From Fibrobacterales bacterium (lineage in GTDB: Bacteria; Fibrobacterota; Fibrobacteria; Fibrobacterales; JAOPTW01), in contig JAOPTX010000079.1 of the NCBI GenBank assembly GCA_051532055.1, positions 1 through 42,329 on the forward strand: a stretch of 42,329 nucleotides of DNA, given 5' to 3'. The first letter of the stretch is position 1. Every line of letters starts with the position of its first letter. The notes under the pieces were generated by a model. That model was given only the letters and a program-made list of their open reading frames with translations. It ran no database searches and was not told the origin of the DNA. Of the stretch, positions 18,627 to 28,891 are shown piece by piece. Position numbers and translations under genes: made by a program.

Positions 18627-21600
18627 ATGAAGAGAGGATATCTCTATTCGTTTCTATTGGTAAGTATTTTCACTTTCATTTTAGTAGGATGTATCTCAGG
18701 TTTTGATGACTATGTTGATGTCAAAAAAGAGACCGATGCAATCGTTACTGAATTCGTGATCTTAGAAAACTCATCAGATCTCTGTAATGACAGTTTAGAT
18801 AACGACAACGATGCCCTCTTTGATTGTTATGACCCTGACTGTGGTATGATTGAGTATTGTAACCCTGAGTATAATTGTGCAGACACCCTCGATAATGACC
18901 TTGATGGATTCGTTGATTGCAGTGACCCCGACTGTATTAATACCGAAGAATGTAATAAGCCCGTAGAAAATACTTTTGAATTGTGCCATGATACCCAAGA
19001 TAATGACTCAGACCTCCTTATAGATTGTCTTGACCCTGAATGCTCTTATTTCTGTGCGGATTCATTGGAGAATACACTGGTTAAGTGTATGGATAATATT
19101 GATAACGACCAAGATAGTCTCGTAGATTGTAAGGACCCCGATTGTAGTAGCTTTCAGATGTGCCAACCTGTAGAAGAAAATACTCTTACACTCTGTAACG
19201 ATTTTATTGATAATGATGCGGATGCCCTTGTTGATTGTGACGATGACGGTTGTTCTCAAATGGCCTTTTGTCTAGAGCCTGGTGAAAATACGTATATCAC
19301 TTGTACCGATAGTGTTGATAATGATGGTGACACCTTTGTCGATTGTGATGACGATGGTTGTAAAGGTTTTGAGATATGTCTGCCTGATGGAGAAAACACC
19401 TACATAAAATGTAGTGATGGTATCGATAATGATGATGATTTACTTATTGACTGTGAAGACCCGAACTGTAGTGGGGTACCTGTTTGTATGGGGCTCGCTG
19501 AGAATACAGATGTAGAGTGTAAGGATGGTATTGATAATGATGGAGATGCTCTTATTGATTGTTCTGATGACGACTGTAGTAGTTTTGCGTGGTGTTTGCC
19601 CTCCGTAGAGAATACCGTTGATCTTTGCAAAGATACTTTTGATAATGATGGTGATGCTCATATTGATTGTGCAGATTCTGATTGTCAGCAAATGGAGCAT
19701 TGTTTACCACCGGGTGAAAATACTTATAAAACGTGTACTGATTTGATTGATAATGATAGTGACGGACTCATTGATTGTGCTGATGATGAGTGTAAATCTT
19801 TTGAAGCATGCTTGCCAGATGGAGAAAATACTTATGCTCGATGTACCGATACGATTGATAATGATGGTGACTTACTCATCGACTGTGATGACCCAAACTG
19901 TGGTGGGGTTCCTGTGTGTATGGGCCTTGTAGAGAATACAGCTGTTGAATGTAATGATAAAATAGACAATGATGGGGACAATCTCATTGATTGTTCCGAT
20001 GATGACTGTAGTAGCTTTTTATGGTGTCTACCATCTGTAGAAAATACTGTGGTTCTCTGTCAAGATGGTGTTGATAATGATGGTGACTCAAATGTTGATT
20101 GTGATGATTCAGATTGTACACAAATGAATCACTGTATTATTCCTGGTGAAAATACTTATGTAGCATGTAGTGATGGTATTGACAATGATACAGATGGACT
20201 CATTGACTGCCTAGATAATGATTGCTCAGGATTTGATAACTGTCTTCCCCCAGGTGAGAATACGTACATTCGTTGTTCTGATGGGATTGATAATGATAGT
20301 GATACTGACATTGACTGTGATGACAGTGACTGTAGTGGTGTTTCAATCTGTCTTAATGCTGCGGAAAACACTATAGCCGAATGTCAAGATGGTGTTGATA
20401 ATGATAGTGATACTTTTATTGATTGTGCTGATGATGAATGTAATCAGTTTCAATTTTGCCAGCCCGCAGTTGAAAATACTGATATACTTTGCTCTGATGG
20501 TCTCGATAATGACAATAATAATTTGACAGACTGTGATGATCCTGGCTGCAAATTTATTAGCTCTTGCTTAGTTTTCGAAAATACAAATGCTGTATGTGGA
20601 GATGGTATTGATAATGATAGTGATGGTGATATTGACTGTGCTGATAATGATTGTGATGGACAGCCTGTTTGTATGCCTGTAGGAGAGAATACCGCGACCA
20701 AATGTGTTGATGGTATAGATAATGACGGTGACTTAAAGATAGATTGTGATGATGAAGATTGTGCTGGAATACAGGCTTGTATTAAGGAAGAAAATACTAT
20801 TCCTCGATGTAGCGATGGATTAGATAATGATAATAACGGTGTGGCTGACTGTGATGATCCTAATTGCCAGAGGTTTTTTAGTATATGTCCTGCAGCTGTT
20901 GAGAATACACAATTATTGTGTCAAGATAACATTGATAATGACAGTAATGGAGACGTTGACTGTGCTGATGATGGATGTAAATTATTTGATTTTTGTCAGG
21001 AGAATACCTCAATTACTTGTGGAGATAATTTTGATAATGATTTGGATGGAGATATTGATTGTGATGACATTGAATGTGCTGCATTTTGTGAGTCGGATGA
21101 ATTAAGTTGTTTACCGCCAGGGTACCAGTTTAGAGATAGAATTGCTTTTCAGGTTAATATTTACGATTATCATGGACAAGAAAATGGAAATTGCAGTCGA
21201 GGTAACGTTCATGATAATTTTGGTTGTGAAGATAAGCCTGGAGGTGTTGTTACCGGGATGGTTCGAAATAAATTAAGCTCGAAAGGGTTGCCTCAATTAA
21301 AAGCAAATTTAGAAAATAATGCATATATTGAAGAGTGGTGGGATAGGGATGGACGTGGAACTTGGTATGCTGATAATGTCTACTTTCAACTCAACCCAAT
21401 CGATTCCAGTTATGTTTTTGAAGACAATACTTACTTTCCGTTAGATAATATAGTGGGCTATCGAAATTATGGTTTTGCAATGCACTTCCATAAACCTTTT
21501 ATGTATCTCGAAAAGGACGCAGACAAACAGACATTTACATTTCATGGTGATGATGATGTTTTTGTGTATGTTGATAATCAACTTATTCTTGATATAGGCG

Positions 21601-21773
21601 GTATACATCAAGCTGCTTCAGGTTCTTTTAACTTAAAGCATATAGCTGATAGTTTAGGTATTCAAAATGGAGAGGTTGTAAATTTTGACTTTTTTATCGC
21701 TGAGCGTCAGCCTGTTGGGTCAGAGGCTAAAATAACAATGAAGTTACCATGCTTGGTTGGTGGGCAATTTTAG
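18627..21773 (+). CDS. Lipoprotein with 22 Cys/Asp-rich repeats and C-terminal fibro-slime (PA14-like) domain
   Basis: Lipobox LVGC; repeats ENTxxxCxDxxDNDxDxxxDCxDxxC; YFPLD..NYGFAMH..FTFHGDDDVFVYVDNQLILDIGGIH..FFIAER (fibro-slime). Confidence 0.92.
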   Translation: MKRGYLYSFLLVSIFTFILVGCISGFDDYVDVKKETDAIVTEFVILENSSDLCNDSLDNDNDALFDCYDPDCGMIEYCNPEYNCADTLDNDLDGFVDCSDPDCINTEECNKPVENTFELCHDTQDNDSDLLIDCLDPECSYFCADSLENTLVKCMDNIDNDQDSLVDCKDPDCSSFQMCQPVEENTLTLCNDFIDNDADALVDCDDDGCSQMAFCLEPGENTYITCTDSVDNDGDTFVDCDDDGCKGFEICLPDGENTYIKCSDGIDNDDDLLIDCEDPNCSGVPVCMGLAENTDVECKDGIDNDGDALIDCSDDDCSSFAWCLPSVENTVDLCKDTFDNDGDAHIDCADSDCQQMEHCLPPGENTYKTCTDLIDNDSDGLIDCADDECKSFEACLPDGENTYARCTDTIDNDGDLLIDCDDPNCGGVPVCMGLVENTAVECNDKIDNDGDNLIDCSDDDCSSFLWCLPSVENTVVLCQDGVDNDGDSNVDCDDSDCTQMNHCIIPGENTYVACSDGIDNDTDGLIDCLDNDCSGFDNCLPPGENTYIRCSDGIDNDSDTDIDCDDSDCSGVSICLNAAENTIAECQDGVDNDSDTFIDCADDECNQFQFCQPAVENTDILCSDGLDNDNNNLTDCDDPGCKFISSCLVFENTNAVCGDGIDNDSDGDIDCADNDCDGQPVCMPVGENTATKCVDGIDNDGDLKIDCDDEDCAGIQACIKEENTIPRCSDGLDNDNNGVADCDDPNCQRFFSICPAAVENTQLLCQDNIDNDSNGDVDCADDGCKLFDFCQENTSITCGDNFDNDLDGDIDCDDIECAAFCESDELSCLPPGYQFRDRIAFQVNIYDYHGQENGNCSRGNVHDNFGCEDKPGGVVTGMVRNKLSSKGLPQLKANLENNAYIEEWWDRDGRGTWYADNVYFQLNPIDSSYVFEDNTYFPLDNIVGYRNYGFAMHFHKPFMYLEKDADKQTFTFHGDDDVFVYVDNQLILDIGGIHQAASGSFNLKHIADSLGIQNGEVVNFDFFIAERQPVGSEAKITMKLPCLVGGQF
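18765..21089 (+). repeat. Intragenic tandem repeat, ~108-bp unit x22, with 432-bp higher-order periodicity
   Basis: 22 C-x-D-x-x-DND units counted; DNA at 19461 and 19893 is closely similar (offset 432). Confidence 0.9.
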
Positions 21774-25652: not shown

Positions 25653-25686
25653 CAAAAAAAAGGATCTGAACAAACAGGTCCTTTTC
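25653..25686. terminator. Bidirectional terminator between convergent genes
   Basis: AAAAAAAAGGATCTG-AACAAA-CAGGTCCTTTT. Confidence 0.7.
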
Positions 25687-25712: not shown

Positions 25713-26564
25713 CTATGAAGCATCGGATTGTTCGTCTTGAGGGCCTCCTTCATTATGTTGCGCATCGATGATTTTTTTCTTTTTTGCTTTAAGAGAATTA
25801 TACTGTTTGCGTTTGTATTCGCTCAAAAAAGTATCGAGTGTTTTTTTGTCGTGTTTAAAAACAAAGCGTGCCCATCGGCGGATCTCTTCAACAGTTTCAC
25901 TTAAATGCGTTATAGCTTGATCACAGATAACGCGGTATTTTGAATAGCGATCGAGTTGGGCGGCAGTACGGATGCCATTAAGCTCTACTGAAAGTATTTT
26001 TGCTTTAGCTAGGTTGGTGATGTCATATCGAAGTTCCTGCAATTCTTCAGTCATGTTCTCACCCATACGAGAAAGGTCCATGAGGTCTTGAATCATGTCA
26101 CTTATGGTAAATCCTTTTGAGATGTTTTTCAAAATTGCCATTTTTTCAGATTTATTATGTGATGCAAACTTAAGGTAGTCATAAAGAGTATCGCGAAGCT
26201 CTTTGGCTTCAGGTTTTTTGAGACTCCATGCATTGCCCTCTTCTATAGAAAGTTTCAGGTTACTATTTGCGATTCGTGCGGCGCCCAGACGTCTGATTAG
26301 TTGTATCTGTAATGGCGCATCAAAGCCGCGAGTCAAGAGTGAGTCCATGGTATGATCCACAACTTTAAACAGGCTTTCACCTTCTGAGATATAGCGGTCG
26401 GCTATCATGCCAGAACTATAGATCTTTTCAATAGCTTGAATAGCTTCAAGTTCTTCATCATAAAACCGTTCATAATCTTTTATAGGCATTTTTTCATCAA
26501 TTGAAACTAATTCTACTTCAGTTGTTTGTTTTGCTTCTGCGATTGTATTTTTGTTTTTAGACAT
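25713..26564 (-). CDS. Uncharacterised alpha-helical protein
   Basis: ATG at 26564 preceded by GAGGA (the longer start at 26624 lacks an RBS). Helical, charged sequence; DMIQDLMDLSRMG and DQAITHLSETVEEIRRWARFVF segments. Confidence 0.8.
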   Translation of the reverse strand: MSKNKNTIAEAKQTTEVELVSIDEKMPIKDYERFYDEELEAIQAIEKIYSSGMIADRYISEGESLFKVVDHTMDSLLTRGFDAPLQIQLIRRLGAARIANSNLKLSIEEGNAWSLKKPEAKELRDTLYDYLKFASHNKSEKMAILKNISKGFTISDMIQDLMDLSRMGENMTEELQELRYDITNLAKAKILSVELNGIRTAAQLDRYSKYRVICDQAITHLSETVEEIRRWARFVFKHDKKTLDTFLSEYKRKQYNSLKAKKKKIIDAQHNEGGPQDEQSDAS

Positions 26565-26817
26565 ACTGTCCTCAGTAGTGGTACCAACATCATTAGTAGG
26601 TTCTTCTCTATGGGTACCGTGCATAGAGGAGTGTTAGTTGTTAATCAGTGCAAGTAATAGTTCTCTCATCTGATACATCTATTAGACGACAGTGCAAGAA
26701 CCATTGTTACCAGAAGATTAAAAGAGTGTGAATGTTTTATGAAACTTTACAAAAGTTGCTGGTTATTTAAAAAAAAACAATACTTTGTAAACCCAAAAAG
26801 ATCTAATGGGTAGTCGT

Positions 26818-27280
26818 ATAGAGGGGTTTAAGTCAGCAATGAATCATATGAATAGGTCAGATGAACTGCTCAGTATGGGATCGAGAACACTATTTGACTC
26901 ATAAGAAGTATTTTAGGAAAGGTACGCTTGTTTTAAATGCTGTGATGACGCTATGGTGTTTCGTCTGAGAGCTTTTGTAGTTTCAAATAGAGGGTTGTGT
27001 CGCCCTGCATGGTTGTTATGGCCTTGATATGAGAGTCTTCAAGTTGACGTATGATGCTTCCATGATTCTCATGAGAAGATTCATAAGTCATGCATGGTAT
27101 TTTATTGGACCTAATGGAATAATGACTCGCTTGTCATAGAGCTTTCAAGACTTGAGTTGGAGAAATACCAAACGTCATACGGTGATATGCTCGGCTAAAT
27201 GGAATTTTGTTTCCTCTGTATGAAGCTTTTAAGACTCAACTGAGAGGATACATAACTACCATTGAGAGTTGGTCACTACT
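26818..27280. repeat. Degenerate ~21-bp periodic non-coding array (~22 units)
   Basis: ATG/ATAG/CTGAGAG-type anchors recur every 20-23 bp (26818, 26839, 26861 ... 27199, 27220, 27240, 27262); no ORF of 60 aa or more in any frame. Confidence 0.7.
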
Positions 27281-27343
27281 ACCCCCAATGTTTATTGTAG
27301 AGAGGGTAGCAGTAGTAGGCTTTAGTTTATTTTGAAGACTTAT

Positions 27344-28891
27344 TTAAAACAGTATTCGCGCACCAGCAGAAAGAGCACCAAATTCATTCTTGTCCTCAAG
27401 AATTTCTACACTCCACGATACAAAAATCTGTGAAAACTCAGACTGAATCCCTCCTGTAGCAGAAACAGATATATTCTGATTGTCGCCATCTTCAATATTG
27501 TCATATGAGATAGTTCCTTCACCATAAAATTTATCAGTTAAGCCAGCAATTGCTGTTGCTCTAAATAATTCGTGCTTGGGGTCTGCTTGGTTCATTGACA
27601 ATGAATTGTAGTTGTCAGCGATAGGAAGTTTAATCCAAATATCTGCTTTAAACTCACCTTTAGATGGTTTTTTACCAAAATGATATTCAAGTACCGGAGC
27701 TTGGGCTGGTCCGTAGTCTCTGAGAGGTACTGAACAATACGACGACTTTAATGCGATGGTATTTTTTGCATCTAAATTACCTCTCCCACCGTTTCTAAAA
27801 AAGATAGCGCCAACATTAAGTTGGTCAGAAATACCGTATGCTCCATCGAGTTCTGCATTTATATCATATGCAGATGACCCATCGTCCATATAGGGAGCGA
27901 TATACAATGCAGCATTACCGAGTATCTGCCCTTTGCCTAACGTTTGATCATAATAGTTGTCCCAGTTTCCATTGACGTTGTCAAAGGTAAGTGCTCTGGT
28001 GCCATGGAGGTAGCCCCCTGAAAGAGTTATTAACGAGCCTGTTTTTTTGATTGTAGAGTTGAAATCGATTTTTGAAGCTGATTTGTCAGAGCTAGAATAA
28101 GAGAGCGACCCAAATAATTTATCAGTCCTCCCTTTTATACGGAGAGATGTTGTTTTAGAATACTTGCTTTTATCGTTACCATTGTAAATGTATTGTTTTG
28201 TATGGTCTAAGTTAAAAGTCGCTCCTATTGTTACGTTGTTAAGAAGCCCAAGATCACCTGAATAATCAAAATTCTCTAAATCAAAGGAATCCCACCATTG
28301 GTGTACAACAGATACATCATGTTGGTACTGCATTTTATTGAGCATGGGACCATTAAAAAAAGCAAGCTGATACTCTTCAGGTGTAATACGTATCTCACCA
28401 TTATTGGTGAGTAGCTTCGAGCCATATGTGTTAATAGTTACAGCAGGATCTTCTGTTCCATATTTAGAATCTGATTCTTGTGGACTAAAGATCTTGGTGG
28501 CCCATAAATTAGTTGGGACCATAGACAAATAGAGCATGTGACCTGGAGACACCATATATTGTCCCTGAACGTAAAGAAGGCGGGCTATTACTATATCTGA
28601 TTCGCTATCATCACTACTTAACCATCCGATAGTTGGTGAAATATACATAGAATATACTTGTTCTTTACCCTTGTAAAAACGTGGGCTTACAGTGAATATC
28701 GAAACCTTATCAACATAATCAATTGAACCGTCTGCATCTATAATGCCTCCCTCGGTTAAACGGCCAAGGGTATAGGCGGGTTTAAAAACTGAGTTATAAG
28801 TATTTTGGCTCGTTGCCTCTTCAGACTCCTGCGCAAATAGGGAAGGGACTAAGAAAATGAATAAAAATAAATAAGAATACTTGTTGGTCAT
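27344..28891 (-). CDS. Probable outer-membrane beta-barrel protein
   Basis: Signal peptide (..PSLFA), amphipathic strands, C-terminal ..AGARILF. Confidence 0.7.
   Translation of the reverse strand: MTNKYSYLFLFIFLVPSLFAQESEEATSQNTYNSVFKPAYTLGRLTEGGIIDADGSIDYVDKVSIFTVSPRFYKGKEQVYSMYISPTIGWLSSDDSESDIVIARLLYVQGQYMVSPGHMLYLSMVPTNLWATKIFSPQESDSKYGTEDPAVTINTYGSKLLTNNGEIRITPEEYQLAFFNGPMLNKMQYQHDVSVVHQWWDSFDLENFDYSGDLGLLNNVTIGATFNLDHTKQYIYNGNDKSKYSKTTSLRIKGRTDKLFGSLSYSSSDKSASKIDFNSTIKKTGSLITLSGGYLHGTRALTFDNVNGNWDNYYDQTLGKGQILGNAALYIAPYMDDGSSAYDINAELDGAYGISDQLNVGAIFFRNGGRGNLDAKNTIALKSSYCSVPLRDYGPAQAPVLEYHFGKKPSKGEFKADIWIKLPIADNYNSLSMNQADPKHELFRATAIAGLTDKFYGEGTISYDNIEDGDNQNISVSATGGIQSEFSQIFVSWSVEILEDKNEFGALSAGARILF

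Follow-up and report, generated by a model that had tools for sequence, protein, structure and literature searches.

A gene for a helical protein and its own array of repeats two helical turns long form a unit that is widespread in several bacterial phyla and is apparently undescribed in the literature. In the window, by which we mean the whole stretch of 42,329 nucleotides that was analysed, the unit consists of the gene for a 283-aa protein and a faint 21-bp repeat, which we confirmed to be real and non-coding. The following features were located:

25654..25685, minus strand: terminator-like hairpin with a T-run after the stop of the 283-aa gene, read from the sequence, with one mismatch in the stem
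25713..26564, minus strand: gene for a predicted all-helical protein of 283 aa, a probable distant homologue of PQLLE (NF052641), start at 26564
26580..26628, minus strand: possible H-type pseudoknot in the leader, beside the ribosome-binding site, with a 7-bp stem (26622-26628/26606-26612)
26613-26618, minus strand: possible loop of this pseudoknot, complementary to 26580-26585, read from the sequence
26682..26711, minus strand: putative ECF-sigma-like promoter, GGTAAC-N17-CGTCTAA, a motif common to several paralogue leaders
26812..27274, no strand assigned: degenerate, non-coding repeat array whose 22 units measure 20-22 bp (mean 21.05) and show an 84/169-bp higher-order structure
27275..27316, no strand assigned: hairpin that closes the array distally, directly behind the stop codon of a 515-aa gene (27344-28891, minus strand), read from the sequence

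Free segmentation of the array, with steps of 19-23 allowed, gave the 22 units with steps of 20-22 and a score of 131, compared with 79.5 ± 8.0 (maximum 94.9) in 60 shuffles (z 6.4). This agrees with the initial annotation, which had proposed about 22 units at a spacing of about 21 bp; its 22 anchors all lie 6-9 bases into the segmentation units (the lists were compared by eye) and its word pairs were found where it had placed them. Its consensus holds only roughly, with conservation below 0.6 at most positions. Autocorrelation over 26818-27280 gave peaks at lags 84 (z 4.6) and 85 (z 4.3), the cut-off being 3.72 (99th percentile of the highest z per shuffle, over 500 dinucleotide shuffles). 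The peak that had been expected at lag 21 was weak by itself (z 2.3), but the comb score, taken over multiples of the period, was significant, with 5.9 at a period of 21.2 against a 99th percentile of 3.43 over 1500 random windows of the genome. Units eight apart (169 bp) are the most alike, with an identity of 0.44 as compared with 0.31-0.39 at other offsets, which indicates the higher-order structure. As had been stated, no ORF of at least 60 aa lies in the array; the longest that overlap it have 46 and 42 aa. The array is absent from the output of Tandem Repeats Finder, and blastn and nhmmer found no second copy in its genome.

For the start of the 283-aa gene we chose 26564, on the basis of a GAGG at 26570-26573 and of the N-termini of paralogues; the first ATG of the ORF finder is at 26624. 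Because the gene is on the minus strand, the array lies on its upstream side, 248-710 bp from the ATG. Moreover, some 100 bp separate the array from the promoter motif downstream of it, and the array is thus outside the predicted mRNA of the gene. The motif itself would be a promoter of ECF-like type. The pattern was derived from the paralogue leaders, so that its hits on contigs C79 and C47 are circular; in its strict form it has 19 hits in the genome, 13 of them between genes, and 10 of the intergenic hits start 49-63 nt ahead of a start codon. A looser form precedes 21 of 179 family genes (reverse-strand count, 10 of 179), and the motif therefore appears limited to some lineages. Among its 19 sites in the genome of the window (G000) the motif precedes about a dozen other genes, a candidate regulon, many with signal-peptide or lipoprotein-like N-termini. 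No sigma-54 promoter was seen by eye in the window leader, and a scan for sigma-70 promoters stayed at chance level (7 vs 5.7).

The pseudoknot-like element of the leader is a possible candidate for translational control. Its topology recurs, with other letters, in the leaders of paralogues L003, L004, L005, L007 and L011, and the family genes of Prolixibacteraceae have other hairpins in their leaders. Taken in its entirety, the window leader has no folding advantage over shuffles (z -1.3). The hairpin at 25654..25685 is missing from a consensus terminator scan, and that at 27275..27316 is probably the terminator of the 515-aa gene. In one small metatranscriptome of the same sample, no contig covered 25563-27317 and some flanks had coverage of low depth, but contigs cannot show absence; two further runs gave short pieces only.

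The 283-aa protein matches no Pfam family, and at E ≤ 0.001 it matches 555 representatives after clustering at 50%. Its own genome holds 7 matches and a sister genome 20, and a search of 59 further genomes of the order found none; a word-indexed protein search found one relative only. A family profile detected the family in 44 of the 296 genomes of a Fibrobacterota phylum set. Outside the phylum, the best 80 of 168 matches include Bacteroidota, Calditrichaceae, KSB1, Neomarinimicrobiota, Gemmatimonadota, Aminicenantes, Gammaproteobacteria and Polyangia; cultured carriers are Draconibacterium, Prolixibacter, Aquimarina and Sunxiuqinia. With the queries used, no match was found in plasmid, phage or viral collections. 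The protein is under purifying selection, with dN/dS of 0.06-0.40 in five of seven pairs of paralogues or orthologues, the other two being saturated.

Arrays with a period of 20-22 bp were searched within about 1 kb of 184 non-redundant family genes (188 before duplicate removal). With a comb score above 5, an array was found beside 120 of the 184, upstream in 29 and downstream in 91, which leaves 64 genes lacking one at this threshold. Only 0.4% of 1500 background windows score as high, and since up to about 17 windows were considered per gene, at most about 7% would be expected by chance. In the 400 bp after the stop alone, 48% of 172 family genes exceed the threshold. The array had been attributed to the 25713-26564 gene, with the proposal that the flanks of homologues be checked for 21-bp periodicity, and the periodicity is indeed found there. 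It was detected in 17/23 genes of the own genus, 48/80 of the rest of the phylum and 55/81 of other phyla. The upstream position that had been described holds for the window and its genus (16/17) but not for other phyla, where arrays are downstream in 54/55; the rest of the phylum has 12 upstream and 36 downstream.

Each gene has its array on a single side: none of 168 fully covered family genes has arrays on both. Within other genomes of the phylum this exclusion gave p = 0.001 (Fisher), on kin that are not independent. A FastTree of 115 proteins implies 10 changes of side, as compared with 24.5 for shuffled labels. Among 80 genes with downstream arrays, 77.5% have a hairpin within 90 nt after the stop that is more than 3 kcal better than shuffles. 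The pairing is also evident within the genome of the window: of 59 regions with a 21-bp signal, 52 lie mostly within ORFs and 7 are non-coding. Of the latter, five lie beside a gene or pseudogene of the family, and the other two are a unit relic and an unrelated 41-bp repeat. Finally, array, promoter, gene and terminator can duplicate as one block, as in L005 and L007, which are 92% identical from -954 to +965 in unrelated contexts. No terminal inverted repeats were seen by eye at the ends of the duplicated blocks. Apart from divergent paralogue pairs and a small operon in the own genus, no conserved neighbours were found among 512 flanking ORFs.

Several further arrangements were recorded at these loci. 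Divergent pairs of distant paralogues occur at 19 loci (for example L006/L014, L048, L052, L053 and L061), and in L006/L014 and L013/L024 one array lies between the divergent genes. A near-identical gene of 92-93 aa (80-90% DNA identity) is found downstream of paralogues L006, L009, L011, L013, L015 and L020, mostly followed by a gene of 319-324 aa, to which several loci add a phospholipase-D-like gene of 346 aa. Five local regions were searched for family fragments; in G000, the arrays at C37:88900-89600 and C39:18200-18900 have no family gene and lie beside unit relics, comprising a broken 93-aa follower gene, one array unit of the L005/L007 type and an L020-like array. In a single case (L200:4330-6010), a family gene lies within a degenerate direct repeat of about 130 bp that covers the upstream region of the next gene, and G000 C27:14200-14460 is the matching empty site. 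In the sister genome, TIR domains, a type I methyltransferase, a QatA-like protein and PDC-S58 were noted near the family genes L189, L194 and L195 (no control).

The period of the arrays is kept while their sequence, side and orientation change. When lags of 7-35 were compared without bias, the best lag was 20, 21 or 22 in 82 of 148 downstream windows and in 1 of 130 controls. Across 90 arrays (median, 8 units), steps of 20, 21 and 22 were counted 131, 542 and 111 times, with a mean of 20.97; the step fit mildly favours 21. Two helical turns, which the initial annotation had singled out, are thus the conserved property. The letters behave otherwise. Paralogues in one cell each have an array with its own unrelated motif, and at the syntenic site of the sister genome a paralogue of 36% identity is accompanied by an unrelated array with a 43-bp period, between core genes that are 83-98% identical. 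One pair of orthologues, for which dS is 0.17, shows 8-23 differences per 100 bases in the array region, so that the array drifts at about the synonymous rate and its letters are not visibly constrained. Among 32 similar array pairs, 17 are on the same strand and 15 on opposite strands, five of the 15 being one array shared by a divergent gene pair. Arrays become more similar as protein identity increases, alike arrays making up 0.1-2% of pairs below 45% protein identity and 7-14% at 45-80%; the overall Mantel correlation between arrays and proteins is nil (rho 0.02). Palindromic cores are not enriched (23 of 90 arrays vs 21.8 ± 3.3).

The AlphaFold model of the 283-aa protein (pLDDT 91.7) is all-helical, with two four-helix bundles. 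Foldseek gave no match at E ≤ 0.001 for it in PDB or BFVD, nor for DUF6261 in BFVD. VIA-align returned generic helical bundles only, with best Z of 9.2 for the 283-aa protein and 10.8 for DUF6261, values that show neither a new nor a known fold; the best structural matches of the 283-aa protein (Z about 9) extend over 84-94 residues. A PDB sequence search gave one match, with an E of 7.4. The C-terminal segment is basic, with a median net charge of +4 in the family and +7 in the window protein; the whole protein is not, the median pI of the family being 5.8.

Profile comparison indicates that the family is a distant relative of the uncharacterised PQLLE family at the superfamily level and not a member of it. 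HHalign aligned the family with NF052641 over 207 columns (94.3%, E 1.1e-7). The NF052641 model is matched at E ≤ 0.01, below its own cut-off, by 17 of 26 members of alignment A2; relatives score 13.5-34.3 bits where the cut-off is 80, and the window protein has no match. Conversely, the A1 profile of the family matches 15 of 30 PQLLE-like proteins. Both groups thus appear related over their full length; both are multi-copy and have 21-bp arrays, which we found at 21 of 30 PQLLE-like loci, two of them (L227 and L232) scoring on both sides. The arrays of PQLLE-like genes are nearly all upstream, whereas those of the 283-aa family are mostly downstream. At L222, L231, L239 and L242, PQLLE-like helical domains are fused to about 170 C-terminal residues that look FN3/Ig-like by eye and have no Pfam hit at threshold.

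A third group, DUF6261 (PF19775), has arrays phased at 20-21 bp just upstream in 11 of 14 genes. No sequence homology to the 283-aa family was shown by HHalign (0.9% and 8%); DUF6261 was not found in the genome of the window, and the 283-aa protein is below the Pfam gathering score. In the models, the two groups appear alike in size, in helix order and in having a central and a terminal four-helix bundle, and they share the weak structural neighbours 6n63, 3t6g and 8vhz.

How the arrays work is a matter for more cautious wording. The reading that we favour, as quite possible though short of probable, is that the array is a DNA lattice coated by the product of the neighbouring gene. The unit would then be self-contained, made of gene and array, and the array would act as double-stranded DNA, as is suggested by its fixed two-turn length, its free sequence, side and orientation and its place outside the predicted mRNA. 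With units of 20-22 bp, equivalent sites would recur on the same face of the helix at intervals of two turns. The predicted binder, located in the cytoplasm, would have two four-helix bundles and a basic helix at its C-terminus, and would bind or polymerise along the array, each unit accommodating roughly one protomer or dimer. The resulting complex would work in cis at its own locus, by feedback on the ECF-like promoter, by insulation or by organising the DNA. If selection acts on the spacing more than on the letters, arrays could be rebuilt by slippage and unequal exchange and would drift, flip and change gene side. That the reader would be the neighbouring product is suggested by the occurrence of one array per gene, by the confinement of the arrays to the family within the genome and by motifs that differ between paralogues. 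Several findings go against it: residue-motif covariation among 31 proteins did not exceed permutation (best 5.25; 95th percentile 6.46), the Mantel correlation is nil, the protein is not basic overall, 64 of the 184 genes lack an array at the threshold used, the two relic sites have an array but no gene, the letters of the orthologous arrays show no visible constraint, palindromes are not enriched in the array cores, DUF6261 genes have arrays of this kind, and two PQLLE-like loci score on both sides.

A second explanation is a DNA control region whose reader is a host factor, such as a nucleoid protein or regulator, the gene being merely the regulated target. The arrays before DUF6261 genes (20.5-21 bp), which are not demonstrably homologous to the family, fit a shared host reader equally well, and the absence of covariation and the start of the window array just upstream of a conserved promoter motif are in line with it. 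A general host factor would however have to be reconciled with non-coding arrays that in this genome are almost wholly confined to the family and its relics, with unrelated array sequences at paralogues in one cell and with the 91 of 120 arrays that lie downstream of the gene. We regard this explanation as unlikely.

The initial annotation had left a phased binding lattice and a non-coding RNA side by side. Arrays occur on both sides of the genes and in both orientations, and they lie outside the predicted mRNA, which favours the lattice and counts against the RNA. In type III toxin-antitoxin systems, the repeat array is co-transcribed upstream of the toxin gene in a fixed orientation. Here, the window array is upstream of the promoter motif, 91 of 120 arrays are downstream and both orientations occur; moreover, the family proteins have no Pfam, NCBIfam or PADLOC match to the ToxN, CptN or TenpN type. 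An Rfam scan of the window array found no antitoxin, nor any family near its gathering score; neither strand folds better than shuffles (z -1.5 and -1.1), and the mean unit of 20.97 bp matches the geometry of B-DNA. One array per gene and paralogue-specific sequences would suit a cognate RNA as well, and a few family genes adjoin defence-like genes (of 19 neighbours chosen by hand, 5 had a PADLOC match; no control). A separately transcribed repetitive RNA that binds or neutralises the protein is nevertheless improbable.

It is quite improbable, too, that the array is a functionless by-product, a selfish or hitch-hiking satellite left by movement of the unit or by local slippage. Such an origin would agree with the many dispersed and divergent paralogues (up to 20 in one genome), the pseudogenes and relics, the lack of conserved neighbours, the patchy spread over 44 of 296 phylum genomes, the near-neutral drift of the letters and the one insertion flanked by degenerate direct repeats at L200. 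Slippage alone, however, would not fix a unit of 20-22 bp across phyla or confine arrays to one side, and the duplicated blocks have no terminal inverted repeats that were visible by eye. Lastly, a decayed gene for a heptad-repeat (7-aa) protein, the other origin offered initially, is hardly tenable: 21 is the commonest step (542/789) and some short arrays have a stop-free frame (e.g., 121 aa at the C39 relic), but 68 of 107 arrays have frame-breaking spacings that are not multiples of 3, which rules it out as a general origin, young near-perfect arrays have periods of 20, 22, 41 and 43 (L092, L057, L109 and L003), and the downstream windows lack codon periodicity, with no signal at lags 3-6-9, 7 or 14 or at the half-period of 10-11 bp.

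Returning to the DNA lattice, the closest described repeats are the constant-size, non-coding bacterial tandem repeats of 20-21 nt (also 40-41) and variable sequence reported by Subirana and Messeguer (PMC8161180, PMC6749651). The main text of PMC8161180 notes that 20-21 nt correspond to two helical turns, that the sequence is not conserved and that a genome may hold several families, and suggests either small RNAs or a protein whose polymerisation on DNA demands repeats of constant size. The arrays described here are likewise non-coding and unconserved in sequence between families, and that of the window has the same unit length, at least 4 units and most units within ±1 nt. They differ from the repeats of that text in that every one of them is linked with a gene from a single protein superfamily and in that many are too degenerate for Tandem Repeats Finder; since the window array is among those missed, it is possibly too degenerate for the exact-word criteria of SATFIND as well. 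By length and behaviour the window array is a constant-size 20-21-nt repeat. Its locus contributes a further branch of the superfamily, a switching of sides with mutual exclusion and a promoter motif by which the array falls outside the predicted transcript. We found no partner gene named in PMC8161180, and "adjacent", "hypothetical", "upstream" and "downstream" do not occur in its main text. We found no description of the pairing in the literature searched, and only incidental mentions of DUF6261 and PQLLE. BrickBuilt, the 23-nt minisatellite MITE of Porphyromonas gingivalis with a leader, a tail and inverted ends (PMC4596501), likewise lies between genes as a tandem repeat with units of comparable length, and the 283-aa family is present in its phylum; as described there, it is one sequence family without a partner gene, whereas here the sequence is locus-specific and the gene partner fixed.

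A functional analogy may be drawn with other DNA repeats. Iterons are bound by Rep initiators (P1, R6K) and plasmid centromeres by their own binding proteins (parC-ParR, sopC-SopB). Those systems, like the present units, would combine direct repeats of whole helical turns with the gene of a presumed binder beside them, flexible in position and orientation. The family units differ in being dispersed, multi-copy and highly degenerate, among chromosomal-type genes; among the 512 flanking ORFs there is no Rep, ParA or ParM neighbour, and no link to an NTPase or replicon. The binding folds of iteron and centromere systems are winged-helix, HTH or RHH; the model of the 283-aa protein shows two helical bundles.

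Why many bacteria keep exact 20-21-nt non-coding repeats of free sequence is an open question raised by the main text of PMC8161180. As the arrays are tied to a definite protein superfamily with cultured carriers, the protein proposed there to need a constant repeat size becomes directly testable. It is conceivable, as a wider conjecture, that a superfamily of double four-helix bundles (the 283-aa family, PQLLE, the apparent FN3-like fusions and perhaps DUF6261) coats DNA and reads spacing instead of sequence, each gene having its own two-turn satellite in the manner of a miniature centromere. It could then be the missing reader for part of the 20-21-nt satellites, and either a new class of bacterial chromatin or a self-regulating mobile unit. 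Were the protein the reader, it would represent a DNA-binding architecture that lacks a solved structure, and a bacterial parallel to centromeric satellites, which conserve their length while their sequence drifts.

Two other repeats were observed. A short dispersed repeat, partly tandem at 40-41 bp and REP- or MITE-like, occurs in G000 at C30:40650-40780 and downstream of L003 and L015, inserted near or into follower genes. In the window, positions 18627-21773 hold a lipoprotein-like ORF of 1048 aa. Its internal repeats, with a period of 432 bp, are rich in Cys and Asp; it has a weak match to PA14 and yields a coding signal at 21.6 bp.
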